From: an uncultured Deinococcales bacterium
GTDB taxonomy: Bacteria; Deinococcota; Deinococci; Deinococcales; JAAFIG01
Direction: 5' to 3'
Length of the DNA: 21,257 nt
NCBI GenBank assembly: GCA_964244895.1
Contig: CAXTKV010000079.1
Coordinates: 1 to 21,257 of the forward strand
The notes under the pieces were generated by a model. The model made no database searches. It was not told the origin of the DNA and saw only the letters and a program-made list of their open reading frames with translations. Below, piece by piece: positions 1-21,102 of the stretch (positions are counted from its first letter, which is position 1; each line of letters begins with the position of its first letter). The position numbers and the translations under genes are program-made.

Positions 1-671
1 CTCACGCCGCCCTCGGCTGCGACGTAGGTGAAGCTCAACAGCGCGAAACCGATCAAGGCCAGGTTCAATCGGCTCGAGCCACCGTCTTTTGTGGTTTGAC
101 CAGTGCGCGCGGGCTCGAACTGAAGCTGCCAGAGCGTGCCCGCGACCAGCAGAGCCATCGCCCCGCAGGCCGACAGCAACCACCCGTAATGCACGCTGCC
201 GATCACTCCGATCGCGGCTGGCCCCAGGATCGAACCCAGCCCGAAGGCCACGCTCATCAGCGACATCACCGCGCCCGCCCGAGCCCCGAAACCCCTGGAA
301 AAAATCGCGGCGTAATGCACCTGAAAGACGCCGAAACCCAATCCCGTCAGGAACGCGATCGCCAGCGTCAACGCCCACGCCTCGGACATCGCCAGCCCGA
401 CGCAGGCCAGCCCGAACAAACCCAGCCCGCCGCCCAGCCGCACGCCCACCGAGGTTTTCGGCAACCATCCCGGCGAGAGATTGCCCGCAATTGCTCCCGC
501 GAATTGCGCGCTGCCCAGCAACCCGACCGCGGCCTCCGTCACGCCGTAGCGCGCCCGAATGCTGCCCAACGATGGCCCGATGCTCGAGGCCATCAGGCCG
601 ATCAAGGCCAGCCCCACGAAGGTCGCACCGATCTGAAGAGGGGAAATGCTCGCGGTGCGTGCGGTGGTCAC
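1..671 (-). CDS. MFS transporter (5' part; runs off the left edge)
   Basis: Not in the ORF track. Manual minus-strand translation from GTG at 671 gives MTTARTASISPLQIGATFVGLALIGLMASSIGPSLGSIRARYGVTEAAVGLL...FGLGSILGP...FTYVAAEGGV, open to position 1. It has many Gly-rich hydrophobic helices typical of MFS. TATGAT lies 6 nt upstream. Confidence 0.85.
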   Translation of the reverse strand, partial: MTTARTASISPLQIGATFVGLALIGLMASSIGPSLGSIRARYGVTEAAVGLLGSAQFAGAIAGNLSPGWLPKTSVGVRLGGGLGLFGLACVGLAMSEAWALTLAIAFLTGLGFGVFQVHYAAIFSRGFGARAGAVMSLMSVAFGLGSILGPAAIGVIGSVHYGWLLSACGAMALLVAGTLWQLQFEPARTGQTTKDGGSSRLNLALIGFALLSFTYVAAEGGV

Positions 672-732
672 GCCCAGATCATACGGTTCAAATTGGACGC
701 GCCGACCCGAGTTCTCGCGCCTTGAGTCAGCA

Positions 733-800
733 GAAACACCGTCCGGCACGCAATATCTCGAGGCTCAAAATGCGCGTCTAGGACGGTGCTCCATCTCGAG
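733..800. repeat. Intergenic hairpin repeat copy (type I left arm, type II right arm)
   Basis: GAAACACCGTCCGGCACGCA ... TGCGCGTCTAGGACGGTGCT, with CTCGAG in the loop (757) and just outside (795). Lies between divergent genes. Confidence 0.8.
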
Positions 801-880
801 CCACCGAAAACACACCGCGCTGTCGTATCCCACTCTGGGACGAACAAAAACTGATCTCGTGCTCGCACGACCCCAGCCGT

Positions 881-886
881 TAAGAT
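881..886 (+). promoter_or_regulatory. -10 element of probable leaderless lysK transcript
   Basis: TAAGAT-gacccg-ATG(893): TANNNT 6 nt before the start, no Shine-Dalgarno. Confidence 0.65.
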
Positions 887-892
887 GACCCG

Positions 893-1993
893 ATGCTCGA
901 GCAGACACCGCCCACCGCCCACACCGACCAGGAACGCGATTTCATCGAATTGATCCGCCAGGCTGTCAGCATCCCCAGCCTGAGCACCCAGGAAGCCGAT
1001 GTCTGCCGATTCCTGGTGCGCTGGATGCACAAACGCGGTTTCAAAGCCGAGATGGACGGCGCGGGCAACGCGGTCGGCGTGCGCGGCACGGGGCCGCTCG
1101 AGATCGTCATGCTCGGCCACATCGATACCGTCCCCGGCGAGATTCCGGTGCGCATCGAGGATGGTTATTTGTGGGGTCGCGGCAGCGTGGACGCCAAAGG
1201 CCCATTCTGCACGCACGTCGCCGCCGTCGCCAGCCTTCCAGACCATGTGCTCGAGAAAGCGCGGTTCGTGTGCGTCGGTGCGGTCGAGGAGGAAGCGCCC
1301 AGCAGCAAGGGCGCGCACCACGCCATCAGCAAGTTCACGCCCGACTACTGCATCATCGGGGAACCGTCGGGGTGGGATACGATCACGCTCGGCTACAAGG
1401 GCCGCTTGATCGTCAAGGCGCGGCTCGAGAAGGATAACTTTCACAGCGCGGGCGACGACACCACCGCAGGCGAGGACATGATGCGGTACTTCGGTGCGCT
1501 GCAATCCTGGGCGAGCGTGTTCAACGAGGGCCACCGCATCTTCGACGGCGTGCAGGTCGCGCTGCAAGGGATTCACAGCGATTCCGACGGTTTGCGCCAG
1601 CGCTGCGAGGCGACCATCGGATTGCGATTGCCGCCCCGACTGAACCCCGACGATGCGCTGGCGGAACTCGAGCGCGTGCGTCTGGAATTGGGATTGACTG
1701 CCATGCGAACCCACTACTCCGGGCGCGAGGAACCGTACCGAGGCCCGAAAGACACGCCCCTGACCCGCGCCTTCCGCGTGGCGATGCGGGCGCAGGGCGT
1801 GACGCCGCAACTGACATTAAAAACCGGGACCGCCGACATGAACGTGGTCGCGCCGCTCTGGGGCTGCCCGATTGTTGCGTATGGGCCGGGGGACAGCACG
1901 CTGGATCACACGCCGAACGAACGTCTCGAGATCGCTGAATACCTCCGTGCCATCGTCATCTTGCGCGAAGCGTTGATACGGTTGGTCGGTTAA
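893..1993 (+). CDS. lysK: [LysW]-lysine hydrolase (M20 family)
   Basis: M20 motifs [25 protein letters not shown] and the C-terminal [14 protein letters not shown] characteristic of LysK. Confidence 0.88.
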
Positions 1994-2337
1994 CGCTTGT
2001 GTGCGCTGTACGGCTGTCTCGAGTTCCAAGTACGTGGTTCTAAGGATCGTTTTGGTTTGAACCTATTCTCGAGCCATTCAATTCCCCAGATCAGGGTGTT
2101 CTTGATCCAGTGGAGGATGAAGCCGTACACAAGCGCAGGCCACCATCCAAAGAAGAGATGAAATGCGTTTCCGAAACCACTTGAGGATGGCACGAACATG
2201 CCAAAAAGCCAGTACAGAACGGCTCCTGCGAAAGCACCTTTTCTGTCAAAACGCCATACGAACCAGACAGGTGTTCCAAAAAAGACGAGCAGGGTTGCAA
2301 AGTTCCAGAATGTGGTCAATCGAGTCTCCGTCTGCAA
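1990..2337 (-). CDS. Small hypothetical membrane protein, AT-rich
   Basis: 115 aa, about 3 hydrophobic Trp/Phe-rich segments. Stop overlaps the lysK stop (TTAA 1990-1993). TTG start uncertain. Confidence 0.55.
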
Positions 2338-2398
2338 AGAAATCAGTGGAACTACGAAAGCATATTTGAAATAACCAAAGGCTTACGAGAAGCTGATT

Positions 2399-2452
2399 CT
2401 CGAGAAACACCGTCCAGCACGCAAGTTCAAACTTGCGTGCTGGACGGTGTTT
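2399..2452. repeat. Intergenic hairpin repeat copy (type I, perfect)
   Basis: Perfect 23-bp arms AAACACCGTCCAGCACGCAAGTT (2405-2427) / 2430-2452 with a 2-nt centre, preceded directly by CTCGAG. Confidence 0.95.
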
Positions 2453-2556
2453 GTGCGAGTCGGGTACTTGATTCGGCAGGATCGAAGATCATTTCGCGCT
2501 AGCGGTAGCGATCTGCACGCGGACGATGCTCGAGAAACGTTGAGAAGATGAGACCG

Positions 2557-3006
2557 TTACGCGACGCCCGCTACGACCAGCAGCACAAACGCGGCGACGA
2601 TGATGCCCACCCGGAAGTAATGAAAGAGATTCCAACGACCGACCTGCTCTCGCCAATCCTCGGGGACGCCCGTAAATGACCAGCGAGCGACCCTCGAGTT
2701 GATGGGGACAAGGAGCGTCACTGACATCACGACGCTGACCAAAAGCAATGCGACAGCCGCGACGACCGTTATCGCTTGCGGACGACCCCACGTTTGGGCC
2801 GCCCACCAAATCCCGAGTACGACTGATCCGATGTACCAGAAAGGCATCAGCCGCCCGAGTACCCTAGCTCCGTCACTGCGGGCCGCGATGGCTGCGTTGT
2901 TGGGAAGGCGATCAAAGATGGGGTTGACGAAGGCCGCCACTGAGAGTTCTACGCCCACCATCAATCCAACGACAACGACCGTGACGATGATCAACAATTC
3001 CGGCAT
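2557..3006 (-). CDS. DUF1772 / anthrone oxygenase-like membrane protein
   Basis: Four hydrophobic segments with GLMVGVELSVA, MPFWY, LLVPIN..W and W...H..R motifs. GGAGG RBS upstream. Confidence 0.8.
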   Translation of the reverse strand: MPELLIIVTVVVVGLMVGVELSVAAFVNPIFDRLPNNAAIAARSDGARVLGRLMPFWYIGSVVLGIWWAAQTWGRPQAITVVAAVALLLVSVVMSVTLLVPINSRVARWSFTGVPEDWREQVGRWNLFHYFRVGIIVAAFVLLVVAGVA

Positions 3007-3030
3007 GATTCCAACCTCCCTAAAGAATTT

Positions 3031-3097
3031 CTAGCAGCGCTAGTTTATCGTTCAATGCTAATAGTAGCTTTGCTCGGATGTCAAGCGGTGCTAGCCT
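3031..3097. promoter_or_regulatory. Divergent promoter region with two candidate TetR operators
   Basis: CTAGC-AGC-GCTAG (3031-3043) and CAAGC-GGT-GCTAG (3082-3094). Minus-strand TTGACA (3084-3079)-N18-TAGCAT (3060-3055). Plus-strand TAGCCT (3092-3097) 6 nt before the tetR ATG. Confidence 0.65.
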
Positions 3098-3103
3098 CGT
3101 GCC

Positions 3104-3697
3104 ATGTCAGTCCATCAACGCAAGATGCGCGAGCGCACTGAACGCCAACAGATGATCGTTTCAGCAGCCCGTGAACTCGCCGAAACTGAGGGATGGGATG
3201 CCGTTACAACGCGAAGACTCGCTGAACGCATCGAGTACAGCCAGCCGGTGCTTTACAGCCACTTCAGCGGAAAGGATGAAATCGTTGGAGCGGTCGCGCT
3301 TGAAGGCTTCGTTGAGCTGGCGGCGGCATTTCGCCGCGCCGTGCCCAGCGGGGTCACGGGGCGTGCGGCGGTCGCTGCGTTGGTCAGTACCTACGTTGTC
3401 TTCGCCGAAACGCACCCTGCCGTCTACGACGCCATGTTCAGTCTCCGCAACGGGCTTCCATTCGCCGATGCGGCCACACCAGCACCGCTGCGCGAGGGGT
3501 TCGCGGCGCTGTTGGAAACGCTGGGCGAGGTGGCCGGTGCAGTCGAGCCGGAGGTGTTCACCGAAGTCGTTTGGGCGGCGTTGCACGGTTTGGTCACCCT
3601 GACCCGCGCCGGTCGGCTCCCGTCAGAGCGAACCAACCAACGGCTCGACGCGCTGGTGGATCGGCTCGTCGGTGTGCGACGAAGAGCCAAACGTTGA
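3104..3697 (+). CDS. TetR/AcrR family regulator (WHG-type C-terminal domain)
   Basis: N-terminal HTH GWDAVTTRRLAERIEYSQPVLYSHF; C-terminal WAALHG motif. Confidence 0.93.
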   Translation: MSVHQRKMRERTERQQMIVSAARELAETEGWDAVTTRRLAERIEYSQPVLYSHFSGKDEIVGAVALEGFVELAAAFRRAVPSGVTGRAAVAALVSTYVVFAETHPAVYDAMFSLRNGLPFADAATPAPLREGFAALLETLGEVAGAVEPEVFTEVVWAALHGLVTLTRAGRLPSERTNQRLDALVDRLVGVRRRAKR

Positions 3698-3734
3698 ACG
3701 GGCTGAAAAACCCAAAGGTCTACAAAAGGTGTTT

Positions 3735-3789
3735 CTCGAGAACGCCGTCCTAGACGCATTCTCGAGTTCGTGTGTGGGACGGTATTCTC
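3735..3789. repeat. Intergenic hairpin repeat copy (type II left arm, type III right arm)
   Basis: CTCGAGAACGCCGTCCTAGACGCA ... CGTGTGTGGGACGGTATTCTC, CTCGAG in the loop (3761). Lies between convergent tetR and Uma2 genes. Confidence 0.85.
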
Positions 3790-3798
3790 TGGTTCGGA

Positions 3799-4350
3799 TC
3801 ACGCAAACAATTCGCGCACGACGCAGGAGAAACCGGGCAGCACGTTGGCGTTCTCGAGCGTATCGGTCTCAGTTCGGGTGTGTGCGAGACCGTCGGGCGT
3901 GTGTTCCACCACTTCTCGAGTGCGCGGGTACACGACCCACACGAGTGGCGTGCCTGCAAGTAGATAATCGCGCACCTTGGCGTGGATATCCTCGGCGCTC
4001 TCGCTGGGTGAGACGACTGCTACGGTCAGATCGGGCGGAATCTTCCAGAATGCCTCGGGGATGCCACCTGCCTTTGTAACTCGCTCGGCCTTGATAAAGA
4101 AGACATCGGGTGCGCGGGTTGTATCTGGCCCGAGCGCGAGCGTAAAACCAGATTCCGTACCGACCACGCCACGATTTCCAGTCATCGACCACACTTGAAG
4201 TGCCCCGACCAGTCTCGCGGCGATGATCCCGTGGAGTCCGCCTGGTGGCATGATTTCATTGATCCTGCCTCGAACCAGCTCGAGCTTGGTTTCGCGCTCG
4301 GGCAGTTTCCAGAATTCTTCGGCGGTCATGAGTTTTTCTGCGATGGTCAT
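3799..4350 (-). CDS. Uma2 family (DUF820) PD-(D/E)xK-like protein
   Basis: MTAEEF, ELVRG, PP...HG, RAPDV, PDL...VVSPS, K..DY...G..LVWVVYP and VLPGF motifs. GAGGAG RBS. Confidence 0.92.
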   Translation of the reverse strand: MTIAEKLMTAEEFWKLPERETKLELVRGRINEIMPPGGLHGIIAARLVGALQVWSMTGNRGVVGTESGFTLALGPDTTRAPDVFFIKAERVTKAGGIPEAFWKIPPDLTVAVVSPSESAEDIHAKVRDYLLAGTPLVWVVYPRTREVVEHTPDGLAHTRTETDTLENANVLPGFSCVVRELFA

Positions 4351-4393
4351 GCGAGATCAACTCCTCTTGCCCACTGTGCCACGAATACGAAAT

Positions 4394-5275
4394 CTAGGCC
4401 GCGACCCCGAACGATGCGAACCACGCCTTGAACGACGGCTCGAGCTTCATCACGCTGCGGGTCACGCCGCCGCGACCCGATGATTGCGGCAGCGCGTCCA
4501 TCGCGGCCAGCACGAATTCCAGCCCGCGACGCTCGAGCAATTCGGCGGCGTGCAAGGTGAAGCGCGCCTGATACCAGGCCTGATTCGCCAACGGCAACCG
4601 CACCAGCGGGTATTCGAACGCGCCCAGGTCGGTGCGGTGCAGGTCGGCGTCCTGAAGGCGGGTCTGGCGTTTTGCGGCCTTGCGTTTGCGGTTGCCGCTG
4701 GGCATCAAAAGGTTCGCGTCCCCGAGGGCGCAGTCGTCAACGCTGGCGCTCGAGAACACGCGGCCCCACTCGAGAATCCTCTTGTACGCCTCGGGCATGG
4801 TTGTTCTCAGCGCGGACAGGTACAGGTAGGTCGCCAGGAATTCGTCCAGCCAGCGCACGTGCGTGCGCAGTTCCAACTGATCGGCCAACGCGTGCCCCAG
4901 TTCGTGTCCGAGCGTCAAATCGAGGAATTCTTCGACGTTGCCGGGCGCGCGTGCGCCGTTTTGTTCGGCGCGCACGATCACGGCCTTGAAAACCCACAGC
5001 AAGCGGGCGGGGTAATCGCCGGGCGCGAAGATCACGCCGTCGCCCGTTTTCAGGCGGCGGTAGAAGGTGAAACCGTACGGGTACGGCAGGTTTTTTGTCC
5101 AATCCGATTCGGTCAACACCCGCAGCGTCACGGGCTGGAACGCGGTCTGAGGCCGCAGCGCCCGAAGTTCTCGCTCGAGCGTTTCGTGCAACCCGCCCAG
5201 GTACGCGCCGAGCGCCCGAGATCGTCCCGTCAGACCATCTGAATGCTCGAGCATGATGCGTTGCGCGTCGCTCAC
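4394..5275 (-). CDS. Uncharacterised protein with gluzincin-like HExxH...E motif
   Basis: 293 aa; GHELGH followed by RWLDEFLATY. TAGAAT 6 nt upstream of the GTG start. Confidence 0.75.
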   Translation of the reverse strand: MSDAQRIMLEHSDGLTGRSRALGAYLGGLHETLERELRALRPQTAFQPVTLRVLTESDWTKNLPYPYGFTFYRRLKTGDGVIFAPGDYPARLLWVFKAVIVRAEQNGARAPGNVEEFLDLTLGHELGHALADQLELRTHVRWLDEFLATYLYLSALRTTMPEAYKRILEWGRVFSSASVDDCALGDANLLMPSGNRKRKAAKRQTRLQDADLHRTDLGAFEYPLVRLPLANQAWYQARFTLHAAELLERRGLEFVLAAMDALPQSSGRGGVTRSVMKLEPSFKAWFASFGVAA

Positions 5276-5306
5276 GCGTCGATTCTACCTCTGGGTTTGT
5301 GTTCCC

Positions 5307-5443
5307 GACGGTGTTCTGCGACCAAACCAGATTTCGTGCTGGCGTCGTTTCGCCTCGCATCTCGAGGAGCCTGCCCGGATTTGGTAAGTCCGCCTGGGAC
5401 GGTGTTTTTGATCATCAAAAATGTGCGTCCAGGACGGTGTTTC
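5307..5443. repeat. Three same-orientation half-copies (right arms) of the hairpin repeat
   Basis: GACGGTGTTC (5307-5316), GGGACGGTGTTT (about 5396-5407) and TGTGCGTCCAGGACGGTGTTTC (5422-5443), upstream of rel. Confidence 0.7.
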
Positions 5444-5512
5444 TGAACATGAACGAAGGATACAGGCCGGAATTACCGTTCCTGCGGCGGCGCGCGCTAA
5501 ACTGTCAATTCG

Positions 5513-7918
<2,406 letters not shown>

Positions 7919-7983
7919 GAAAACACCGTCCAGCACGGTGTTTCTCGAGCATCGAGATTTGCGTGTGGGACGATGTTCTCGAG
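7919..7983. repeat. Intergenic hairpin repeat copy immediately after the rel stop
   Basis: GAAAACACCGTCCAGCACG ... GCGTGTGGGACGATGTTCTCGAG, CTCGAG also in the loop (7944). Confidence 0.85.
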
Positions 7984-8072
7984 TGTCGGAACTGAACCGC
8001 TTTGCGCTTGTGCGTTCGCTACCCTCGTCGGATGCGGCGCAAAGCTGTGCAGGGCTGCGAAGGTGAACTCGA

Positions 8073-8612
8073 GTGAATTACGAAACGTACTGGGATTTTG
8101 CCAAGACAAGCATTTTTGATGCTCCATCAACGGTCGCATGGATTTCCGGCTCTGTCGTAATCTTTTTCGTGTTTATTGTATTTGTGAGTATTGGACAACC
8201 TGAGGAATACTTATCAGTTCGCCATCTGTTAGTAAAAAACTTTATCCATCTTTTTGCTTTTCTCGCTTCAGTATGCTTACTTGGATTCTTTGCTTTTTAT
8301 GATCAACTGCACGCCAGATATCTTATAGGCCATCATATTATCAGTGTTTTTGAGGGAAAAATAGAAGAATACAGAGCAGGTGTGACTGATAGACCATCTG
8401 TAATCTTCAGCGTGAATGGACGCGATTTTGAGTTCCAGTTTAACGAACTGATAAGCCCTTCGTTCTATCTGGTAAAAGATTTGCCACTCAAGAATGGCTC
8501 TCGAGTTCGTCTGACATACGTTGATCCATACCGTGATTCCACATGGTGGTGGGTCGGAGGACAACAGTGGGTCACGCGTTTCGAGATTGCTCGTGACGAA
8601 ACGCCGCGCTGA
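8073..8612 (+). CDS. Hypothetical protein, 2 TM plus beta-rich domain, AT-rich
   Basis: 179 aa; AAGGTGA RBS-like sequence upstream; 8161-8220 is 20/60 GC, far below the flanks. Confidence 0.7.
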   Translation: MNYETYWDFAKTSIFDAPSTVAWISGSVVIFFVFIVFVSIGQPEEYLSVRHLLVKNFIHLFAFLASVCLLGFFAFYDQLHARYLIGHHIISVFEGKIEEYRAGVTDRPSVIFSVNGRDFEFQFNELISPSFYLVKDLPLKNGSRVRLTYVDPYRDSTWWWVGGQQWVTRFEIARDETPR

Positions 8613-9219: not shown

Positions 9220-9228
9220 TCGAGCCAA

Positions 9229-9280
9229 GAGAACACCGTCCAGCACGCGAATAAAATAACGTGTGCTGGACGGTGTTCTC
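9229..9280. repeat. Intergenic hairpin repeat copy (type I)
   Basis: Perfect 18-bp arms GAGAACACCGTCCAGCAC / GTGCTGGACGGTGTTCTC around an A-rich loop. Confidence 0.95.
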
Positions 9281-11773: not shown

Positions 11774-11811
11774 AGGGATGGCGTGCTGGCCGGTGGCGGG
11801 GCATGGGGCTT

Positions 11812-12441
11812 TTAGAAATTATCGTCGCCCAGGTCGTTGGCTTCGGCCAGTTCCTCGAGCGCGGGAATGTCCAAGAGCGTGATGCGGCGGTAACCGGATT
11901 GCACCAGGCCCTCGGCGCGCAATTCCGTGACGATCTTCGAGACGCTCTCGCGGGTGCTGCTGGTGCCTTCGGCGATCAGTTCGTGGGTGGCGCGCACGTA
12001 GGTGCGGGTCTGCTCGTCCGCGCCGCCCAGGGGCGTCTTGGAGAGTTCGATCAGGTAACGCGCCACGCGCTGGCGCAGGTCGCCGATCTGAAGGTGGTAC
12101 TCGTAGGCCATCACGCGCTGAAGCTGGTCGGACAAAGATCGCGTCACCAGCGACAGATTTTCCTGGGTCATGCCGTTCGGGTCGACCGGTATGACGGTCG
12201 CGTCCGTCAGGGCTTCGACCTGATGGTCGCGCCAGGCTTTGGTGAAGGCTTCCTCGCCGAAGTAATCGCCGGGCAGGACGTGGCGCACGGTCAGCACGCG
12301 ACCCTTGGGGGTCAGTTTGGCGATGCGAATCAAGCCGGATTCGACGCGGAACAACGACAGGGCCGGGTCGCCTTCGTAGTAGACGGTCTGACCGCGACGG
12401 TAGCGCATGGTGTGCTGCCTCGGGCTGATGGCTGTGGTCAT
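11812..12441 (-). CDS. ldrP: CRP/FNR family activator, LdrP (TTHB099)-like
   Basis: RHVLPGDYFGEEA, AYEYHLQIGDLRQRVARYL and RESVSK match Thermus LdrP as I recall it. Start moved to ATG 12441 behind AAGGAG. Same operon as carH. Confidence 0.8.
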   Translation of the reverse strand: MTTAISPRQHTMRYRRGQTVYYEGDPALSLFRVESGLIRIAKLTPKGRVLTVRHVLPGDYFGEEAFTKAWRDHQVEALTDATVIPVDPNGMTQENLSLVTRSLSDQLQRVMAYEYHLQIGDLRQRVARYLIELSKTPLGGADEQTRTYVRATHELIAEGTSSTRESVSKIVTELRAEGLVQSGYRRITLLDIPALEELAEANDLGDDNF

Positions 12442-12463
12442 GCGATCTCCTTTTTTGGCCATG

Positions 12464-14083
12464 TCAGGCCACCTTCTGGCTGTCTTCGGCCTTCGAGCTG
12501 ACCGAGCGATCTGGGTGAGTGGCGGTGGCTGATCCGACGCGACCGAGAATCCGTGCCGCGGTGCGAGACGCGTTGAAGCCGCTGACGGCGACCCCGATGG
12601 TTCCCTGACCGGGAAAGATGGTTTCGCCAGCCAGCAGAAGGCCGCGAACGCTGGTGCGATGGTGCTGGGCGTTGAAGTTGGCCGCGGCTGGGGTCTGCGG
12701 AATGCCGCCGACCCGTCCCATGCCGTGCAGCGTGAAGCGTTCAAAAGTGCGCGGGCTGCCGGATTCCAGGTGTACCAGGTTGGCGTTGAAGCCCGGCCAG
12801 AGCGCCTCGAGCCGCGCCAGGATGCGCTTTTCGTGCTGGATTTTCTGATCGTGATACGCGTCTTCTGAGAGCTTGAACCAGTCCTGCGCGTGAACGTGGG
12901 TGCTGATGGTGATGCTCCTGAAGCCTTCCGGGGCTCGCGATCTGTCCCAGGCGGGGCTGATGGAGACCAGAAAGTTTTGCGTCAGGCCGTCCCGGTCGAA
13001 GTCCACGACCTGCTCGAAGCAACCGACATCGGCGGGCAGAGCGTTTTCGCGCACGCCCATGTAGAGCGTGAACGCACCCCAGATTTCCGGGTAGCTCGAG
13101 GCGTTGGGCTCGAGCGCGGCGGGTTTGGCGTCGCCCAGCAGCGCCATCGTGTCGGTCGCGGGAGCGGTCGAGATCACGACCGGGCTGCGGAACATCCGTC
13201 CATGCGTTTCCACGCCGACCACGCGCCCCTTCTCGGTAACGATGCCGCGCGCGCGGGTGGCGTAGTGCACGTGCGAACCGCTGGCTTCGATGCTGCCCGC
13301 CAGATCCTCCGCGATGGTCGCCAGGCCGCCGGGGACGTACTGCGCGCCGTATCGGTAAATCTCGAGGGCGTACGATCCGTTCGGTAGAGCGCACTCGTCG
13401 GAGACGCACTGCATCGAATCGAGCAGTTGCGCGTCGATGAAGGCTTTGTGCGCGGGGTCGGTTACGCCGTGCCTGTCCAGCGCGTCCTTGACGGTCTTGT
13501 TCAGTCCGAACAGGACTTTCAGCAATCCGGGGTGAATGCCTCGGGCGGTATCCAGGATGTCCTGGAGGCTTTTGAACGGCATGACCGGGAACTTGCGCGC
13601 CACGTGGTGCATCACGTCCGCCGTGCCCTGAATGTCTTTCCAGAAAGCGCGTTTTTCGTTGAGCTGACCCGGAAATGAACGCTCGAGTTCCGCGTCCCAG
13701 GCAGCGCGCGTGCCGCGCAGGAAAACGGTTCGATCAGGCAGATGCAAGCGCATGGCAGGATCGAGCGCCACGGCTTTGGGCGTCATGCCCAGCGTGGCGT
13801 AAATCTGGTTGAACAACCCGCCCGGCTCGAGTCCCGACGCGACGGTCGCACCGACCGGAAAGCGGAAGGTCCCGAGCGCGGTCTTGCGGCTGTAGGCGGT
13901 GGCGCAACCGCCGGGATGAATGTCGCGCTCCAGCACGCGCACGCTGTAGCCGCGTCTGGCAAGCAGGGCTGCGGCGGTTAGGCCCGCGAAGCCCGCCCCG
14001 ATGACGGTCACGTCGGCGTGCAAATCCTGGCGCTCGACGCGCCCCGTTTGAGGCACGGCGCCCCCTGAGATGGCCGCGTTCAT
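12464..14083 (-). CDS. FAD-dependent carotenoid desaturase/isomerase-family oxidoreductase (cyanobacterial CrtD-like clade)
   Basis: GAGFAG FAD motif, PGGCA, VGAT...GLEPGG, GAFTLYMGV, RAPEG, SPRTFERFT, G.VGG..Q and GETIFPGQGT. ATGA overlap with carH. Confidence 0.8.
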   Translation of the reverse strand: MNAAISGGAVPQTGRVERQDLHADVTVIGAGFAGLTAAALLARRGYSVRVLERDIHPGGCATAYSRKTALGTFRFPVGATVASGLEPGGLFNQIYATLGMTPKAVALDPAMRLHLPDRTVFLRGTRAAWDAELERSFPGQLNEKRAFWKDIQGTADVMHHVARKFPVMPFKSLQDILDTARGIHPGLLKVLFGLNKTVKDALDRHGVTDPAHKAFIDAQLLDSMQCVSDECALPNGSYALEIYRYGAQYVPGGLATIAEDLAGSIEASGSHVHYATRARGIVTEKGRVVGVETHGRMFRSPVVISTAPATDTMALLGDAKPAALEPNASSYPEIWGAFTLYMGVRENALPADVGCFEQVVDFDRDGLTQNFLVSISPAWDRSRAPEGFRSITISTHVHAQDWFKLSEDAYHDQKIQHEKRILARLEALWPGFNANLVHLESGSPRTFERFTLHGMGRVGGIPQTPAAANFNAQHHRTSVRGLLLAGETIFPGQGTIGVAVSGFNASRTAARILGRVGSATATHPDRSVSSKAEDSQKVA

Positions 14084-15030
14084 CGCTCGAACCTCGAGAG
14101 CAGGCTATCGAGCGCGACGGATGCGTCTTGACCCAGGTACTCGCCGCCGAATTCGTGCGCCAGTTCCGGCGAGGCGTTGAAGGCTGCCCCGCCGAAAGCC
14201 ACGACGGGCGCGGCGGTTCGCAAATCGATGTTGTTCTCGCGCAGGGCATCGAGGGCTTCCGGTGAACCCGCGGAGATCATCACGGCGTCAGCCCGAACTT
14301 CCTTGCAGAAGCGCACCAGATCCTCGACGGGCGTGTTCGCGCCCAGGTAGTGCGTGCGCAATCCGGCGCGGCGCAAGAAAATGGCCAGCGTCAGGCTGCC
14401 GATCTCGTGGTATTCGTGCGGTGCGCACGCGACCACGACGACCGGGCCGTGGCGCGGGCTGCCCGCGAGTTCCAGGAGTTGATGAAGTTTCCCGCGCAGG
14501 TAGTTGCTGGCCTGGTGCTCGTGTGCGACCGTAATCTCGCCGCGGTGCCATTTCTCGCCGATCGTGATCAGCGTGGGTTGGATGACATCCAGAAGCACCG
14601 CTTCGACGCTCAGGCTGGCGTGCGCGTTGGCCAGGATGCGATCAGCTTTGTGGGTATCGCCGCGCATGGTCGCGTCCACCAGTTGCGCCACCAGATCGTT
14701 GCTGATGCCGCGCGGGTGTCCGACCTGGGCGGCGGGATTCGGAATGGTTTTCTGGGTTCGCGCGCCGTGCTGAAGGACGTACAGCTGGGCTGCGCGGCTG
14801 GCGGGTACGCCGCTGGCAATTTTTTCCTTGAGGAATTCGATGCAGGCGATGTCTTCGGGGCTGTACAGGCGATAGCCGCTGTGCGTGCGTTGCGGGTTGG
14901 GCAACCCGTAGCGGCGTTCCCATTGGCGCAGCGTGGTCGCTGGGACGCGCGTGCGCTGCTCGACTTCATTGGCCGTGAACATCGGCGTGTCGTCGGTCGA
15001 GGTGAATGTCGTCTGGCTGGATTCGTTCAC
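14080..15030 (-). CDS. carH: Adenosylcobalamin-dependent photoreceptor repressor CarH/LitR (MerR HTH plus B12-binding domain)
   Basis: TLRQWERRYGLPNPQRTHSGYRLYS MerR HTH, W-x9-EH (WHRGEITVAHEH) and E.HEIG B12 motif. GTG 15030 has a GAGGT RBS; ATG 14982 is an alternative start. Confidence 0.9.
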   Translation of the reverse strand: MNESSQTTFTSTDDTPMFTANEVEQRTRVPATTLRQWERRYGLPNPQRTHSGYRLYSPEDIACIEFLKEKIASGVPASRAAQLYVLQHGARTQKTIPNPAAQVGHPRGISNDLVAQLVDATMRGDTHKADRILANAHASLSVEAVLLDVIQPTLITIGEKWHRGEITVAHEHQASNYLRGKLHQLLELAGSPRHGPVVVVACAPHEYHEIGSLTLAIFLRRAGLRTHYLGANTPVEDLVRFCKEVRADAVMISAGSPEALDALRENNIDLRTAAPVVAFGGAAFNASPELAHEFGGEYLGQDASVALDSLLSRFER

Positions 15031-15082
15031 GGTTGAGAACCTCGGGTTGAGCCAACGCTGTAGAAAGTTTGAAGCACCTTTG

Positions 15083-15118
15083 ATGTCCAATGTATGTCTA
15101 AGGTTTGTCTAATGTCAA
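15083..15118 (-). promoter_or_regulatory. carH promoter with overlapping CarH-type operator
   Basis: Minus strand TTGACA (15118-15113)-N18-TACATT (15094-15089). TAGACA/TAGACA/TGGACA repeats at exact 11-bp spacing (plus-strand TGTC at 15106, 15095, 15084). Confidence 0.8.
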
Positions 15119-15334
15119 GTCGATGTTTGTCCCGACGCGGGGTGTAAAGGTAAAAAACCCCGTCCAGAAAGCTCAATTGCGAAGCGGACGTTTGAATTGA
15201 AGCGGGTTGAATCCGGCTCGAGCGGCCAGAAGTTTGAACAAGCCCGTCCAAACGCGAGGGCTTTGACAAAGCTTATACAACCGATCATTTGGTTTTCCTT
15301 ACGTGCCGGGCACCGTCACGGACTAGAAAGAGCG

Positions 15335-15393
15335 GATACCGTCCTGGACGCAAAAAAATCGAGGTTCCAGTTTGCCGTTCTGGACGGTCTTTT
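15335..15393. repeat. Degenerate hairpin repeat copy (type II left arm)
   Basis: GATACCGTCCTGGACGCA ... CCGTTCTGGACGGTCTTT. Confidence 0.75.
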
Positions 15394-15671
15394 CCAAAAA
15401 CCGGAAACCAGCCGCGCGACTCACACGCCAGCATCGAGCCGCGAAAGGTGAAAGGTGCGTGTGAAACGGGCTTCGTCGCTCGAGCTGAAGTTCTCGCAAA
15501 GCGCACGCCGGTCGAGCCGTGACCACCAGAAATTTGCTCCAACGTCTCGAGCGTTCACCGAAACCGAATGCCAGCCCCGCGATTCAGATGTGTAGCCCAT
15601 ATTTGTAGATCGTGAGGAATTTGGCCTCTGGTGCAACAGAACGGTCGCTATCATGCGATCTGGAAACCGGG

Positions 15672-17684
15672 ATGAGCCTGATTAGCGACACACTGAAACG
15701 CAACCAACCGCGCACCGAAACGGCCACCGTCCAGACGCGCGGCCCGCGCTTCGACCATCTCGGCGGCACGATCGCCGGAGGTATCGGCGGGCTGGGCACA
15801 ATCTTCGCGCTGATGATCGCCTCGAGATTGCCGCTCGATCCGAACCCGCCAGCCGCCCTGATCGGCGCGGTCTGGCTGGTGCTCGCGATCGGCTTGAGCG
15901 TGGTTTTTGGGCTGATCGTGGCGGCTCGTGGGCCGCTGCCAAAAAGATTGACTGGCGCGCTCGCCGGGATCGTCGGCGTACTGGAAATCGGCGCTGGACT
16001 GCGCGCCGGAAGCGTGCTTTTTGGAAGAATGCTCGAGCTAGCGTGGCTCGAATTGGCCTTCGACCTGCTGCTGGCCGGGGGTGTGTTGTTGGTGCTTTAC
16101 ATCCTGCGCCGCGAACTGACCGGCCTGGCTCGCCGCGAAGTCGAAGCTGGAGAGCGCGACCCCTTGACCGGATTGCTCAACCGCGACGGCATCACCCGGC
16201 GCTACAACGAACTGCGGCGCGGTACGCCCGCCTCGATCATGATGCTGGACCTGAACGACCTCGATCAGATCAACGAGATCCAGGGACACGGTGCGGGCGA
16301 TGCTCGCCTCCGCCAGGTGGCTCGAGCCATCGAAGCCGCGCTGCCTTTCGGCGCGATTGCGGGACGCTGGGGCGGCGACGAATTCCTGGTGCTGCTGCCC
16401 GGACGCCACGAACGCACCGCGCTCGAGCTCTCGCACCGACTCCAGCAGGCCGTTCCAGGCCCGCGCACCAACCGTTTACCGTTCAGCATCGGCGTCGCAC
16501 CCGCGCCAGGAGGCCGCCCGCTGGAGCGTTCCGTCGCGACCGCCGACGGGCGCATGTACGAGGACAAGGAAACCCAGCGCGAGGCCGAAGCTGAAATCAC
16601 CGGTGAACGCTCCCTGGCGGGCTTCGAGGAGTTCTCGGCGCGGCTCGAAGGGCTCTCGGACGCGCCCGAAATCGTCGAATCCGGACTGGGCATGGCGCGC
16701 GAACTGCTCGGCTTCGACGCGTGCTTCTACATCGAACGCGAGGAAGCCAAGACCTTCATCCTGGAGCACCTCGATGGCGACCTGGAAGACGGCATGGAAG
16801 CCCTGATCGGCAAGGCCAAATTCCGCCCCGGCAAGGGCCTGATCGGGCGCGTCCTTCAGGAAGGCTTCACGCTTTATTCCAGCGATTACAGCGACGACCC
16901 CGAAGCCCGCGAGGAAAACAACCTGCGCGGCGTGATCATTAAAAGCATGGTCGTGGTGCCCGTGCGCGACAAGAAAGGCGTCACCGGAGCCGTCGGCGTT
17001 TTTTCCTACCATCGTTGGCGTCCGATCACGCCCCGCGTGCGCCGCGCCGTCGAAGCCGTCGGATTGCGCCTCCAGCACGCGCTGGAACGCGATCACGCCG
17101 TGGACGAGATTCGCCGCACCCTGGAAAACGGCTTGCTGGCCATCGGCGTGGCATTAGAAGCCCGCGACCTCGAGACCGCCGGGCACACCGAACGCGTCGT
17201 CAAGATGAGCGAGATGCTCGGCGAACAACTCGGTGTGCGCGGACGCGCCATGGACGCCCTGCGCCAGGGCGCGTACCTGCACGACATGGGCAAGCTGGCC
17301 GTGCCCGACGCGGTCTTGCTGAAAAAAGGCAAGCTCGACGCGGCGGAATGGGCGATCATGCGCGCCCACAGCGTGATCGGCTTCGACCTGGCCAGCCGCA
17401 TCCCCAGCCTGGAGCGCGCCGCGCTCGACGTGATCCGACACCACCACGAACGCTGGGACGGCACCGGCTACCCGGATCGCCAATCCGGTTCCAACATCAC
17501 GCTGGCCGCCCGAATCTTCGCCGTCTGCGATGTCTGGGACGCGCTGACCAGCGAACGCCCGTACAAGAAAGCCTGGACGGAATCCGAGGCGCTGAGTGAA
17601 ATCAAGCGCCTCTCCGGCACGCATTTTGATCCCGAAGTCGTGACGGCGTTCGAGCACGTGCTGGACAAAGTCTCGATCGATTAG
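15672..17684 (+). CDS. Membrane-anchored GGDEF-GAF-HD-GYP c-di-GMP turnover protein
   Basis: About 4 N-terminal TM segments; DPLTGLLNR and RWGGDEF; GAF-like middle region; ETAGHTERV, LHDMGK, HHERWDGTGYP and RPYK. Start 15672 (ATG) or 15612 (GTG). Confidence 0.92.
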   Translation: MSLISDTLKRNQPRTETATVQTRGPRFDHLGGTIAGGIGGLGTIFALMIASRLPLDPNPPAALIGAVWLVLAIGLSVVFGLIVAARGPLPKRLTGALAGIVGVLEIGAGLRAGSVLFGRMLELAWLELAFDLLLAGGVLLVLYILRRELTGLARREVEAGERDPLTGLLNRDGITRRYNELRRGTPASIMMLDLNDLDQINEIQGHGAGDARLRQVARAIEAALPFGAIAGRWGGDEFLVLLPGRHERTALELSHRLQQAVPGPRTNRLPFSIGVAPAPGGRPLERSVATADGRMYEDKETQREAEAEITGERSLAGFEEFSARLEGLSDAPEIVESGLGMARELLGFDACFYIEREEAKTFILEHLDGDLEDGMEALIGKAKFRPGKGLIGRVLQEGFTLYSSDYSDDPEAREENNLRGVIIKSMVVVPVRDKKGVTGAVGVFSYHRWRPITPRVRRAVEAVGLRLQHALERDHAVDEIRRTLENGLLAIGVALEARDLETAGHTERVVKMSEMLGEQLGVRGRAMDALRQGAYLHDMGKLAVPDAVLLKKGKLDAAEWAIMRAHSVIGFDLASRIPSLERAALDVIRHHHERWDGTGYPDRQSGSNITLAARIFAVCDVWDALTSERPYKKAWTESEALSEIKRLSGTHFDPEVVTAFEHVLDKVSID

Positions 17685-17799
17685 CTACGCGAGCTTCGTC
17701 TCGCGGAGTCCCGTATTTCAGGCTGATTCTCGAGATCTTTGACGGCAACAAAAACACGATGCTCGCGGTTGTTTCACGCGCACGACACGCGGATTGCAG

Positions 17800-17824
17800 A
17801 GGGCGAATACAAGAGTCGCCCTAC
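17800..17824 (-). repeat. Single GTAG-type REP-like element (second repeat family)
   Basis: Minus strand GTAGGGCGA-CTCTTGTAT-TCGCCCT: GTAG tetranucleotide at the 5' end of a short GC-rich palindrome. Confidence 0.5.
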
Positions 17825-17893
17825 AAAACCTGTGAGGGAGGGACTGTGATGCGCCCTCGAGACGTACCGAACGCTCGCGGGGATTGCGCGCAT

Positions 17894-17946
17894 CTCGAGA
17901 ACACCGTCCAGCACGCATTATTCAATATGCGTGCTGGACGGTGTTC
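17894..17946. repeat. Intergenic hairpin repeat copy (type I, perfect)
   Basis: CTCGAG overlapping the start of perfect 20-bp arms GAACACCGTCCAGCACGCAT (17899-17918) / 17927-17946, with an 8-nt loop. Confidence 0.95.
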
Positions 17947-17954
17947 CTGAGGGT

Positions 17955-18851
17955 TCACGCTTTGCGCGTGCTGCCATCGAGCGTCAGGATCGGCCCGTAC
18001 AACTCCGGCCTGCGATCCCGGAAAAACCCGAAGCTGGCGCGGAAACCGCGCGCGATCTCGAGGTCGAGTTCCGCGACCAGCACGGTCTCCTCGGTGGTTC
18101 CGGCCTCCGCGATTTTCTCGCCGGTGTAATCCGCGATGAACGACGAACCGTAGTACGTCTGCGTCAGCCCCTCGACGCTTTCCGTGCCGACCCGGTTGGC
18201 CGCCCCGACGTAACACAGGTTCGCCACCGCGTGCCCAATCATCGCGCGTTGCGACATGGCGCGCGTGTCCGTGCCGCCCGCCTCGGCGGGTTCGGAACCG
18301 ATGGCGGTCGGGTACAGCAGGATTTCAGCGCCCAACAGGGCCATCGCGCGGGCCGATTCCGGGTACCACTGATCCCAGCAGATGCCCGCACCGACGATCG
18401 CCAGGCTCGAGCCGCCAGGGTGCGTCGGAAACGCCCTGAAGCCCGTGTCGCCGGGGTTGAAGTAATACTTTTCCATGTACCCCGGCCCGTCTGGAATGTG
18501 CGATTTGCGGTACACGCCCAGCACCTCGCCGCTCGAGTCGATCATCGCGAGGCTGTTGTAGTGCGCCTGACCGGCTTTTTCAAAAAACGATACGGGCAGC
18601 ACGACCTTCAGTTCCCTGGCGAGCGCCTGGAAGCGCGATATGAACGGGTGATCCGCGAACGGGTGCGCCAGCGCAAAGTACGATTCGCGCTGCACCTGGC
18701 ACCAGTACAGGTTCTCGAAGAGCTCCGGCAGCAGGATCAGGCTCGCGCCCCGCGATGCGGCCTCGCGCACCATCGAGACGGCTCTGGAGACGTTCGTCTC
18801 CAGGTCATCCGTCATGCTCATCTGCACCACGCCGAGACGCAAGTTGCTCAT
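17955..18851 (-). CDS. aguB: N-carbamoylputrescine amidase
   Basis: Nitrilase-fold E-K-C triad (PELF, YRKSHIPDGPGY, ICWDQW) and YPTAIGSEP. ATG 18851 behind GAAGGAG. Directly downstream of aguA. Confidence 0.92.
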   Translation of the reverse strand: MSNLRLGVVQMSMTDDLETNVSRAVSMVREAASRGASLILLPELFENLYWCQVQRESYFALAHPFADHPFISRFQALARELKVVLPVSFFEKAGQAHYNSLAMIDSSGEVLGVYRKSHIPDGPGYMEKYYFNPGDTGFRAFPTHPGGSSLAIVGAGICWDQWYPESARAMALLGAEILLYPTAIGSEPAEAGGTDTRAMSQRAMIGHAVANLCYVGAANRVGTESVEGLTQTYYGSSFIADYTGEKIAEAGTTEETVLVAELDLEIARGFRASFGFFRDRRPELYGPILTLDGSTRKA

Positions 18852-18861
18852 CGAAACTCCT

Positions 18862-19959
18862 TCACTGACCGCGCCAGACCTGGCCCGCGGGTTGCTGTTG
18901 GGTGATGCAATGGAACGATCCGCCGCCCGTGATGATGCCGCGCGAGGACAGGCCGATGACCTCGCGGTCGGGAAACAACGGGCGCAGAATCTCGAGGGCG
19001 CGAGCATCGTTCGGGTCGCCGTAGGTGGGCACGATCACGAAGCCGTTGCCGATGTAGAAATTGCAGTAGGTCGCGGCCAGCCGGTCGCCCTCGAGCCCTT
19101 CGGCCCGCGCGAGTTCACCCGAGAGTTCCAGCCGATTTTTCGGCAGCGGGAGCGTCACGATCTGGAACGGGTGCCCGTCAACGTCGGTGAAGCTTCTCAG
19201 TTTCTCGAGGTTCGCGTTCATCGGCGCGAAATTGAGATCGGATTCGTCCTCGCTGATCGCGGTCACGATCACGCGTTCGGACGCGAACCGCGTGATCGTA
19301 TCGATGTGCCCATCCGTGTGATCGTTCTCCAGGCCGTCACCCAGCCACAGGATTTTCTCGAGCCCCAGGGAATCGCGCAGCGCCGTCTCCAGATCCGTTT
19401 TTGAGCGTCCCGGATTGCGTTCCGGCGACAGCAAGCACTGCTCCGTCGTCAGGCACGCGCCCGCGCCGTTGACATCCAGCGAACCGCCCTCCATCACGAT
19501 TCCCGGTCTGAAGGCCGCCGTCTCGAGGATGCCTGCGACGAACTTTGGAATCGCGTTGTCCAGTTCCGCCGGAAATTTGTTGCCCCACCCGTTGAACTCC
19601 CAGTCCACGGGCGCGATTTCACCGAACGCGCCGGGAACGACCGGCGCGATTCCTCCATTGCGCTTGACGAAGATCGGGCCGCTGTCGCGCAACCAGACAT
19701 CGTTGTACGGGTGCCGGTGAAAGGTCACGTCGCAACCCGCCAACCTCGAGCGCGCGTCCCGTTCAGTTTCCTCGTCGCGCACCAAGAGATGCGCGGGTTC
19801 AAAACGAGAGATGGCGCGCACCAGACCCGCGAAATCGGAGCGGACGGATTCCAGGTAACCCAACCAGAGCCGATCGCTGTACGGCCACGCCATCCAGGTC
19901 GCGGCGTGCGGTTCCCACTCGGCGGGCATGGCGAATTGCAATTCACGGGGCGTCTTCAC
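18862..19959 (-). CDS. aguA: Agmatine deiminase
   Basis: MPAEWEPH, W.RDSGP, FNGWG.K, EGGS, DHTDGHID, Y.NFYI.N and GGGSFHCITQQQP motifs. Confidence 0.93.
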   Translation of the reverse strand: MKTPRELQFAMPAEWEPHAATWMAWPYSDRLWLGYLESVRSDFAGLVRAISRFEPAHLLVRDEETERDARSRLAGCDVTFHRHPYNDVWLRDSGPIFVKRNGGIAPVVPGAFGEIAPVDWEFNGWGNKFPAELDNAIPKFVAGILETAAFRPGIVMEGGSLDVNGAGACLTTEQCLLSPERNPGRSKTDLETALRDSLGLEKILWLGDGLENDHTDGHIDTITRFASERVIVTAISEDESDLNFAPMNANLEKLRSFTDVDGHPFQIVTLPLPKNRLELSGELARAEGLEGDRLAATYCNFYIGNGFVIVPTYGDPNDARALEILRPLFPDREVIGLSSRGIITGGGSFHCITQQQPAGQVWRGQ

Positions 19960-20021
19960 GGGTGACCCAGTGTACCGGGAATCGGTGGGGGAGAGGTCAG
20001 GCTCGAGATTCGCGTTCCGGT

Positions 20022-20066
20022 CTCGAGAACACCGTCTGGCGCGCGTTCAGAAAACGTGCGCTCGAG
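20022..20066. repeat. Hairpin repeat copy with shortened right arm, CTCGAG at both ends
   Basis: CTCGAGAACACCGTCTGGCGCGCGTT ... AACGTGCGCTCGAG. Confidence 0.75.
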
Positions 20067-20091
20067 CCTCGGGTTCCGGGAGCCGAATTGC

Positions 20092-20143
20092 GAGAGCACC
20101 GTCCAGCACGCATTCCAGGATTCGTGTGCTGGACGGTGCTCTC
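20092..20143. repeat. Intergenic hairpin repeat copy (type I) with a compensatory base pair
   Basis: Perfect 18-bp arms GAGAGCACCGTCCAGCAC / GTGCTGGACGGTGCTCTC; the consensus A-T pair is replaced by G-C in both arms. Confidence 0.93.
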
Positions 20144-20150
20144 TTGTTGC

Positions 20151-20618
20151 TCAGTTTTTCTCGTCCTCGGCTAGAGCGGCGATGAAGGCTTCCATCTCGG
20201 CGTTGAACTCCTCGGCTTCCACCTCGAGCTTCTGGCGCTGATCCGCCGAATGGTACGCCCGAGCTACGCCCTCCATGACATCGATCAGACCGCCCTGCGC
20301 ATCCTCCTGGACGCGCGCAGTGGCCGCGTCGAAGGTGTACGCGCCGCTGCCCAATGGAAATGCCCACATCAATTCCTGATCCAACACGTCCGGCCATTCC
20401 TCGAGTTCTTCCGTGCGCCCCTCCGCGTACTCGATGGACGCGTACTCACCCAAATCGGGTTCATCGTTGTTGAAATCTAAGCCAAAATGCACGCGCAGGA
20501 TGCCCGCTTCGCGCAAACCTGCGGCCATCGCCTCGAGCGCCGCACGGTTTTTTTTGTGGAACGCCTCGACTTCTTTTTTGAGCCGCGCGTCCATCGGGTA
20601 TTGCTCCCATTCAGCCAC
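20151..20618 (-). CDS. Acidic hypothetical protein, possibly a divergent DUF6878-like protein
   Basis: Start moved to GTG 20618 (MAEWEQYPMD), overlapping the upstream gene by 8 nt behind a GGGGGAAGA purine tract. Contains NRAALEAMAAGLREAGILRVHF.LD. Confidence 0.7.
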   Translation of the reverse strand: MAEWEQYPMDARLKKEVEAFHKKNRAALEAMAAGLREAGILRVHFGLDFNNDEPDLGEYASIEYAEGRTEELEEWPDVLDQELMWAFPLGSGAYTFDAATARVQEDAQGGLIDVMEGVARAYHSADQRQKLEVEAEEFNAEMEAFIAALAEDEKN

Positions 20619-20985
20619 GATCTTCCCCCGCTTTTGTCTCGAGTTCGCGGCTGAGGGCTTTCGCGCCCAGCGCCATCCACGGCCTGATCGGTAAACCTTC
20701 CAGCCAGTCCTGCACGGTCGGTATCTTGCCGCCCATGTCCTCCTTGACGTGCTGTTCACCGATTGCGCGCACCGGAATCACCTTGCCGACGGAATTGGTG
20801 ATGGTCGCACCGAAGACCTGTTCGCACAGGAAAATCCCGAAGCTCGAGTGCAGAATCGCGCGGTGCCGCACGTCCGGCAGGTGCGCTTTGGTCTGATCGA
20901 ACCAGTCGTGAATCGCCTGGTAATCCTCTGGGGTGCCGCCGTATTTTTTAGCGGAACTCAAGCTGTGATGGTACGGGTGCGCCAC
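20611..20985 (-). CDS. DUF6915 family protein
   Basis: MAHPYHHSLSSAKKYGG..EDY..IH.WFD..K....D.RHRA..H...GIF..E..FG.....S.G..IP.R.IGEQHV.ED...IP...DW signature. AGGAG RBS. Confidence 0.8.
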   Translation of the reverse strand: MAHPYHHSLSSAKKYGGTPEDYQAIHDWFDQTKAHLPDVRHRAILHSSFGIFLCEQVFGATITNSVGKVIPVRAIGEQHVKEDMGGKIPTVQDWLEGLPIRPWMALGAKALSRELETKAGEDRG

Positions 20986-21049
20986 GGTTTCTCCTGATGT
21001 CCCTCGAGCTGGTGTCCCTGGAGTATCGCACTGATCCCGATGGACGATG

Positions 21050-21102
21050 GAACACCGTCTGGTACGTGAATTTCAAGTCGTGCCTTAGACGGTATTCTCG
21101 AG
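21050..21102. repeat. Hairpin repeat copy overlapping the 3' end of the last ORF
   Basis: GAACACCGTCTGGTACG ... CGTGCCTTAGACGGTATTCTCGAG. Confidence 0.85.

Follow-up and report, generated by a model that had tools for sequence, protein, structure and literature searches.

The window analysed here is a stretch of 21,257 nucleotides, contig C79 (CAXTKV010000079.1) in the assembly GCA_964244895.1 of an uncultured Deinococcales bacterium (here G000; 5.12 Mb in 328 contigs of at most 66 kb, 91% complete), and our subject is the hexamer CTCGAG, which is scattered throughout it (Table 1). A preliminary description had counted about 90 such sites, roughly one per 230 bp, put their enrichment over base composition at more than tenfold, reported them in several reading frames and densely between genes, and likened them to the highly iterated palindromes (HIPs) of cyanobacteria. 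The exact count is 93, against 7.1 predicted from base composition at 61.7% GC, and dinucleotide shuffles of the window yield 9.26 ± 2.61 sites with a maximum of 15 (0 of 100 reach 93). Sites occur at 3.6 per kb within genes (46 encode Leu-Glu, and 3 and 16 lie in the remaining frames) and at 8.9 per kb between them, so that the early figures are borne out. The case is real and striking, phylum-wide and apparently under fixation bias.

Table 1. Positions of CTCGAG sites, hairpins and selected genes in the window
Feature	Coordinates	Strand	Remarks
Dispersed exact CTCGAG palindromes, n=93	73..21102		65 genic (three frames), 28 intergenic
relA/spoT	5513..7918	+	Core gene with 8 sites, example of coding sites
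Intergenic trio of CTCGAG	20002..20066		Sites at 20002, 20022 and 20061
Longest CTCGAG-free run	2699..3734		1,036 bp; covers most of anthrone-oxygenase gene and TetR gene
ldrP / oxidoreductase / carH cluster	11812..15090	-	Best named matches are from Thermus
REP-like intergenic hairpin	2406..2451		Separate G000-specific element; CTCGAG at 2399 adjoins; z -10.3
REP-like intergenic hairpin	9232..9277		Separate element
REP-like intergenic hairpin	17900..17945		Separate element; CTCGAG at 17894 adjoins

Two outcomes that would have counted against the early account, confinement of the excess to this window and its disappearance under codon, amino-acid and TCGA control, are not seen. G000 as a whole contains 21,883 sites (4,270 per Mb), which are present on all 328 contigs at 1.6-9.1 per kb, and CTCGAG is its commonest hexamer (43,766 counting both strands; the runner-up has 23,892), exceeding Markov expectations of orders 0 to 3 by 12.8-, 9.1-, 9.8- and 3.4-fold, respectively. 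Most GC-rich palindromes are strongly avoided in the same genome (CGGCCG 0.01, CCCGGG 0.04); GGWCC (0.13), GCCGGC and CCGCGG are also avoided in this assembly, in which no C5 methyltransferase was detected. Spacing of the CTCGAG sites is near Poisson (coefficient of variation 0.96), and along the single-contig chromosome of a relative (G006) they are evenly spread, 20 samples of it having between 63 and 111 in each 20 kb. The flanks are nearly flat and carry little information, and a longer motif containing CTCGAG was rejected on this ground. Moreover, odds ratios against each synonymous one-off neighbour, obtained for four genomes, exceed 1 at six of six positions (3-37 in G000, 7 to >200 in g5), implying that the whole hexamer counts.

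Genes in G000 were called with a self-trained, conservative caller (4,284 genes, 79% coding), so that non-coding totals include missed genes, and intergenic densities were taken from gaps of 30-300 bp. Called genes hold 69% of the sites. When amino acids and codon usage are kept and synonymous codons are permuted, the three frames are left with 2,766, 49 and 433 sites, against 11,050, 808 and 3,233 in the real genes; the excess thus survives codon and amino-acid control in every frame, at 4.0-, 16.5- and 7.5-fold. Short intergenic gaps contain 6.0-10.5 sites per kb, 31 times the masked Markov expectation. Nor is the excess due to TaqI or TCGA frequency, for in the sampled relatives the other TCGA words reach 0.5-0.7 of expectation. 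Leu-Glu accounts for 73% of the coding sites and is the most over-represented dipeptide in G000 (2.12x, with Glu-Leu at 0.99x), and CTC GAG encodes 59% of all Leu-Glu pairs.

All 18 relatives in the window's family carry the excess, at 4,600-6,800 sites per Mb. In a phylum scan of 251 genomes, in which f1 to f5 and the g-numbers are assigned groupings (f1 being the window's family) and Thermus-like, Meiothermus-like and Deinococcus-like are names deduced from gene content and from the sizes of groups and genomes, densities are ~1,400-3,500 per Mb in the Meiothermus-like groups g13, g18 and g19, intermediate in f2 and f4, and ~630-1,560 per Mb in the Thermus-like g9, where the reversed control is similar. 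The Deinococcus-like g7 is low, with 9-269 per Mb in the 46 of 92 genomes tabulated and remaining rows that are not higher by eye. Codon-controlled ratios from samples of 11-150 kb are high in G253 (11.1), G003 (8.3), G006 (5.4) and G196 (4.1), middling in G188 (3.4), G090 (3.2), G043 (3.1) and G025 (2.1), and low in G192 (0.97), G197 (0.78), G022 (0.64) and g34 (0.11). A literature search, with REBASE, subscription journals and preprint supplements outside it, found no published CTCGAG excess in Deinococcota and no Chi site for Thermus.

The family has a further peculiarity in that GAGCTC is almost absent from its genomes G001-G018 (0-161 sites in 2.3-5.7 Mb; 0 in G009), with 568 sites in G000. 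Among viral contigs chosen for their CTCGAG pattern, at least six (L319, L303, L328, L320, L308 and L360) have 2.8-7 CTCGAG sites per kb, and several are near-free of GAGCTC, like f1 hosts. No protein match to G000 was found for the 11 CTCGAG-rich viral contigs checked.

Rates of gain and loss were obtained by aligning regions of 20 kb, three from G008 and one from G003, with those of congeners, giving five genome pairs from two related genera with a gene-level bootstrap; the pairs share a reference and contribute 9-19 events each, with multiple hits uncorrected. In all five pairs, synonymous positions within CTCGAG change at 0.08-0.14 times the rate of matched controls, and one-off precursors turn into CTCGAG at 3.6-4.2 times the control rate (loss 0.13 and gain 4.2 for the closest pair after a two-state correction by hand). 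A gain ratio of 1 is expected under protection alone, and a loss ratio of 1 under conversion alone; because the bootstrap intervals exclude 1 for gain as well as loss, one-sided mutation bias does not fit. The ratio of gain to loss corresponds to S of 3.3-3.8, from which Kimura's formula predicts a loss of 0.09-0.12 and a gain of 3.5-3.9. Outside called genes, whole sites are also kept, 57 of 70 compared with 70% of other hexamers, and 17 of 19 compared with 41%. CTCGAG is therefore likely to be kept by fixation bias with S about 3.5, selection and drive being indistinguishable here. In addition, CTCGAG encodes 74% of Leu-Glu pairs more than 480 bp from the nearest site and 47% of those within 15 bp, permutation giving ~59-60%. 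This gap-filling effect dies away by 150-300 bp; it is seen across frames but not in a Leu-Asp control.

The distribution of CTCGAG was set against that of AddAB, the single gene pair profiled, which was picked by hypothesis. G000 encodes addB-addA, split over contigs C128 and C123. An addA orthologue is present in 15 of 15 further family genomes, G253, G196, both g34 genomes, 11 of 11 in f5, 5 of 5 in f4 and 17 of 18 in f2, and was not found in G197, G192, 20 of 20 g7 genomes (6 of them with partial matches to another paralogue), g20, g22, g23 or g24. Of 34 genomes, 28 yielded an AddB; it was missed in G197, G192, G028, G133, G008 and G074. Every CTCGAG-enriched genome tested has addA, and the addA-less genomes tested all lie at or below ~460 sites per Mb, the highest having an equally frequent reversed control. 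A contrast within one genus of f3 follows the same line: G253, with addAB, has 7,010 sites per Mb, whereas G197, which lacks it, has 297 (G196, also in f3, has 3,570). CTCGAG thus follows the enzyme AddAB, with addAB necessary but not sufficient given G205 (see below) and the variable strength of the excess, and this co-distribution lends support to the recombination hotspot that the preliminary description had listed among its explanations. The G000 AddB aligns weakly, through its N-terminus, with that of Bacillus subtilis (E value 0.002), keeping equivalents of Q42 and the aromatic residues W73 and F210 (Chi residues as given in PMC4614115). An addB homologue is also carried by an Oceanithermus profundus plasmid (NC_014753.1, 54423-56099), with a matching hit on the second contig of G037.

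Two groups that have addAB depart from the general pattern. In 102 kb of Thermus coding DNA, including T. thermophilus pTT27, CTCGAG stands at 0.59 of expected and other TCGA words at 0.07, so that CTCGAG is spared 8.4-fold within TCGA avoidance; the corresponding values in addA-less samples are 0.8 and 1.1. Among codon pairs, CTC GAG is seen 99 times against 179 expected, GTC GAG 0 times against 58, and CTC GAC 0 times against 77. An alternative Thermus word, CAAAAG/CCAAAA (4.7x), proved indistinguishable from a general A-tract excess. In T. thermophilus, deletion of addAB raises transformation 30-100x (PMC9751324) and AddAB is strongly active against DNA that enters the cell; Deinococcus is without addAB (PMC9751324, PMC11143384). 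The second group, g34, avoids CTCGAG (0.11x) and is rich in CCAGAG/CTCTGG: in a survey of 80 genomes, G195 has 22,865 sites (4,480 per Mb) and G243 has 9,548 (1,565 per Mb), the other 78 reaching at most ~1,285 per Mb. CCAGAG is enriched 5.6x in G195, in 6 of 6 frame classes, and CCCGAG, intermediate between the two words, is enriched 2.7x. A half-benefit for CCCGAG, as one-strand recognition might give, was rejected as too weak, since in most relatives the enrichment of this word (1.6-2.3x) and its conservation (0.7-0.8x) are mild.

Of the explanations considered, the likeliest, although held at slightly less than even odds and resting on a correlation with addAB, is that CTCGAG serves as Chi for the AddAB helicase-nuclease native to Deinococcota. 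On this proposal, AddAB would degrade inward from the ends of a DNA break until CTCGAG halted degradation and started recombination, and the palindrome would be readable from either side of the break. Each added site would cut the loss of DNA per break and shield incoming kin DNA. The advantage of any one site would be weak (S about 3.5), yet it would suffice to fix synonymous changes and would likely fix some amino-acid changes to Leu-Glu too. Lineages losing addAB would lose the excess, and altered AddAB specificity would shift it to a related word (CCAGAG). More tentatively still, CTCGAG may be the first palindromic Chi, an ancestral AddAB stop signal under selection strong enough to bring it to one per 150-230 bp and to double Leu-Glu in proteomes. 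It would then have faded with the loss of addAB in Deinococcus, G197 and G192, survived in Thermus despite TaqI avoidance, and become CCAGAG in one genus.

Several observations weigh against the Chi proposal. G205 has addAB yet only 285 CTCGAG sites per Mb, and strength differs ~20-fold among addAB-bearing genomes. The addAB link is a correlation with one pair, other genes lost alongside being outside the screen, and two of the three apparent cases of addAB loss are small genomes (G197, 2.3 Mb; G192, 2.1 Mb) with many other losses. Residues in the AddB pocket region do not cleanly separate CTCGAG-rich from CTCGAG-poor lineages, and the single-query AddB search misses G008 and G074. Local strand counts of CCAGAG in G195 are even (59:57, 55:53 and 27:23), the GC skew there being near zero too. 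Leu-Glu-rich context accounts for part of the gap-filling signal, and gain and loss were measured in relatives rather than in the genus of G000, which has no congener. Known Chi sites, as described in Xu 2018 (PMC5861425) and Kamoku 2024 (10.1101/2024.09.10.611283), are non-palindromic and strand-biased; the frequency of Escherichia coli Chi is, according to 10.1101/2021.07.08.451572, mostly a matter of codon use, with sites in open reading frames, unlike CTCGAG; and deletion of addAB in Synechococcus leaves the HIP1 effect in place, according to 10.1101/2024.09.10.611283.

CTCGAG might instead be the site of another sequence-specific protein, such as a nucleoid organiser, a repair entry factor or one related to structural maintenance of chromosomes (SMC), which was lost or changed alongside addAB. 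We think this rather unlikely, even though it would account for the exact six-base specificity, the even spread in G006 and the local gap filling, and a chromosome-structure role has been proposed for HIP1 (Xu 2018, PMC5861425). No candidate was identified, however, the near-Poisson spacing speaks against it, and a dimeric double-strand binder would less naturally move from a palindromic word to CCAGAG, which is not one.

Accumulation by molecular drive as a DNA-uptake or transformation signal, as for DNA uptake sequences (DUS), the methylated RAATTY of Campylobacter, or HIP1, also strikes us as unlikely. Drive would leave an identical fixation-bias signature, and an uptake signal would be expected to lack strand skew and to form dialects, as with CCAGAG in g34; DUS have no strand skew and occur as dialects. 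On the other hand, comEC, which G000 possesses, is present in 5 of 5 genomes, including G197 with no CTCGAG excess, and the richest family has no detected shared methyltransferase. Compensation between sites acts within ~150-300 bp, which counts against uptake because uptake fragments are typically longer, and drive by itself leaves the match with addAB unexplained. In the published record, HIP1 boosts transformation when methylated (Kamoku 2024; PMC13756078), and Blow 2016 documents active orphan N6-methyladenine (m6A) methyltransferases for CTCGAG from Meiothermus ruber, M. chliarophilus and Marinithermus.

The preliminary description had also suggested methylation-directed site creation. 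The Elhai model, in which methylation-directed or Vsr-type repair creates or protects sites neutrally, is, in our estimation, very improbable, although CTCGAG methyltransferases occur in several cultured Deinococcota. Blow 2016 (PMC4752239) gives active m6A CTCGAG enzymes with no cognate restriction enzyme for Marinithermus hydrothermalis, Meiothermus chliarophilus and M. ruber, and lists CTCGAG methyltransferases of other phyla alongside Vsr-named partners. A mixed model that combines protection (9-fold) with conversion (4-fold) might still fit the rates, but one-sided protection or conversion lies outside the measured intervals, and the gain and loss rates fit fixation bias rather than conversion. 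Moreover, no precursor class is consumed, the transition neighbours being the most abundant rather than the least, and no shared methyltransferase was found among the families searched.

As to the enzymes themselves, a survey of five Pfam families in the 91% complete G000 assembly revealed no C5 enzyme and no shared CTCGAG candidate. What the assembly does hold is a BREX-1 PglX at a contig end (L001, C139), the HsdM of a type I restriction-modification locus (L002, C122) and an N6/N4 enzyme whose AT-rich island lacks CTCGAG. At L004:1273-3185 (C6), in addition, a D12-class enzyme adjoins an unclassified 342-aa protein that has no NCBIfam match and may be a restriction endonuclease, perhaps NotI-like. 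Searches of the relatives with four Pfam families and two protein or alignment queries, the D12 class not being searched, found no shared enzyme, in genomes that are incomplete and with divergent enzymes missable; in the window's family, C5, N6/N4, Eco57I and type I enzymes are either missing or only patchily present.

Individual enzymes considered as the cause were rejected in turn. The TaqI-like methyltransferase of G025 has no orthologue in 19 family genomes, and a related-locus search with it returned one unrelated record; all three g9 genomes tested do carry TaqI-like methyltransferases. Alignment A1 (L274-L288), a conserved ~560-aa methyltransferase family of Meiothermus-like and f2 genomes, occurs at full length in none of the 19 family genomes and is missing from G253 and G196. 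All 18 relatives have C5 enzymes, but the 30 loci examined sort into many clusters. The single contig of G006 gave no N6/N4 match and one C5 enzyme, foreign-looking and with no CTCGAG, and the methyltransferase matches of ~500 aa look like assorted type I HsdM. An XhoI endonuclease search of 5 genomes gave no match, the control being equally silent. The TaqI-like and XhoI-like enzymes of CTCGAG-rich relatives are mutually non-orthologous and were not found in the window's family; they may follow from the abundance of the sites, which they would shield, and not be its cause.

Finally, a by-product of codon or dipeptide preference or of a repetitive extragenic palindrome (REP)-like repeat, suggested by the predominance of Leu-Glu among coding sites (73%) and by REP-like hairpins that often end in CTCGAG, is refuted by the frame-wise codon control, the 31x intergenic excess and the confinement of the REP word to G000. 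This REP-like family (arm CGTSCTGGACGGTGTT) has 1,856 core matches in G000, 69 of them genic, often flanked by CTCGAG; its word has 1,031 copies there and at most 8 in each of 40 other genomes, and only 1,480 of the 21,883 CTCGAG sites (6.8%) have a REP core within 40 bp. Another common word, CGTSCTGGACGGTGTTCT, entertained as an uptake sequence, proved to be a G000-confined intergenic REP-like hairpin. Elsewhere in the window, the longest run free of CTCGAG may be a recent acquisition. The carH, FAD oxidoreductase and ldrP genes form a light-response set resembling Thermus carotenoid regulation, their closeness to Thermus placing the window in Deinococcota, and positions 17955-19959 hold an agmatine deiminase-type and carbon-nitrogen hydrolase pair that is likely to serve polyamine synthesis.

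To our knowledge, highly iterated palindromes have been without a mechanism for 30 years. CTCGAG is a denser example that arose independently in a different phylum and whose fixation bias per site has been measured; it adds natural losses, a specificity switch, a named candidate enzyme and no shared methyltransferase found. If true, the Chi proposal would explain how a highly iterated palindrome works and supply the missing Chi of Thermus thermophilus, and would mean that break-repair signals can reshape proteomes. It would also bear on the reason why Deinococcus manages without AddAB and suggest a simple route to higher transformation in Thermus-type thermophiles. T. thermophilus is naturally competent and addAB mutants exist; Meiothermus is cultured.

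Among known systems, the HIP-like label fits well, CTCGAG being palindromic, genome-wide, found in all frames and between genes, family-wide and favoured at fixation. HIP1 (GCGATCGC) and the alternate cyanobacterial HIPs are likewise short genome-wide palindromes in all frames and intergenic DNA with super-neutral conservation (Elhai 2015, PMC4390886; Xu 2018, PMC5861425), and CTCGAG, as the HIP definition requires, occurs genome-wide at 500 per Mb or more and is the top over-represented word. A chromosomal periodicity of 10-90 kb is a further hallmark of HIPs. It is nevertheless another word in another phylum (CGATCG is depleted in G000), is denser (4,300-7,000 against ~500-2,500 per Mb), tracks addAB and has a non-palindromic replacement in one genus. 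It also has no detected shared cognate methyltransferase, whereas HIP1 has a matching methyltransferase in every genome with the word, according to Elhai 2015 (PMC4390886). With the Chi sites of AddAB and RecBCD (AGCGG in B. subtilis, GCTGGTGG in E. coli), CTCGAG has in common a short, exact, lineage-specific word, a cognate helicase-nuclease and an alignable AddB pocket region. Unlike them, it is palindromic, lacks the strand polarity of Chi (no skew is seen), lies far above codon expectation and is densest outside genes, and its recognition by the enzyme is a proposal. DNA uptake sequences, including the methylated RAATTY of Campylobacter jejuni, resemble it in occurring in all frames, altering protein composition, showing no strand preference and accompanying competence genes; CTCGAG differs in having six bases and no shared methyltransferase, and comEC does not appear to track the word. 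It is also unlike the long extragenic hairpin repeats of the REP type, being 69% genic with uninformative flanks and 6.8% of sites near a REP-like core. The orphan m6A methyltransferases of Meiothermus and Marinithermus (Blow 2016) share with it both the target word and the phylum.

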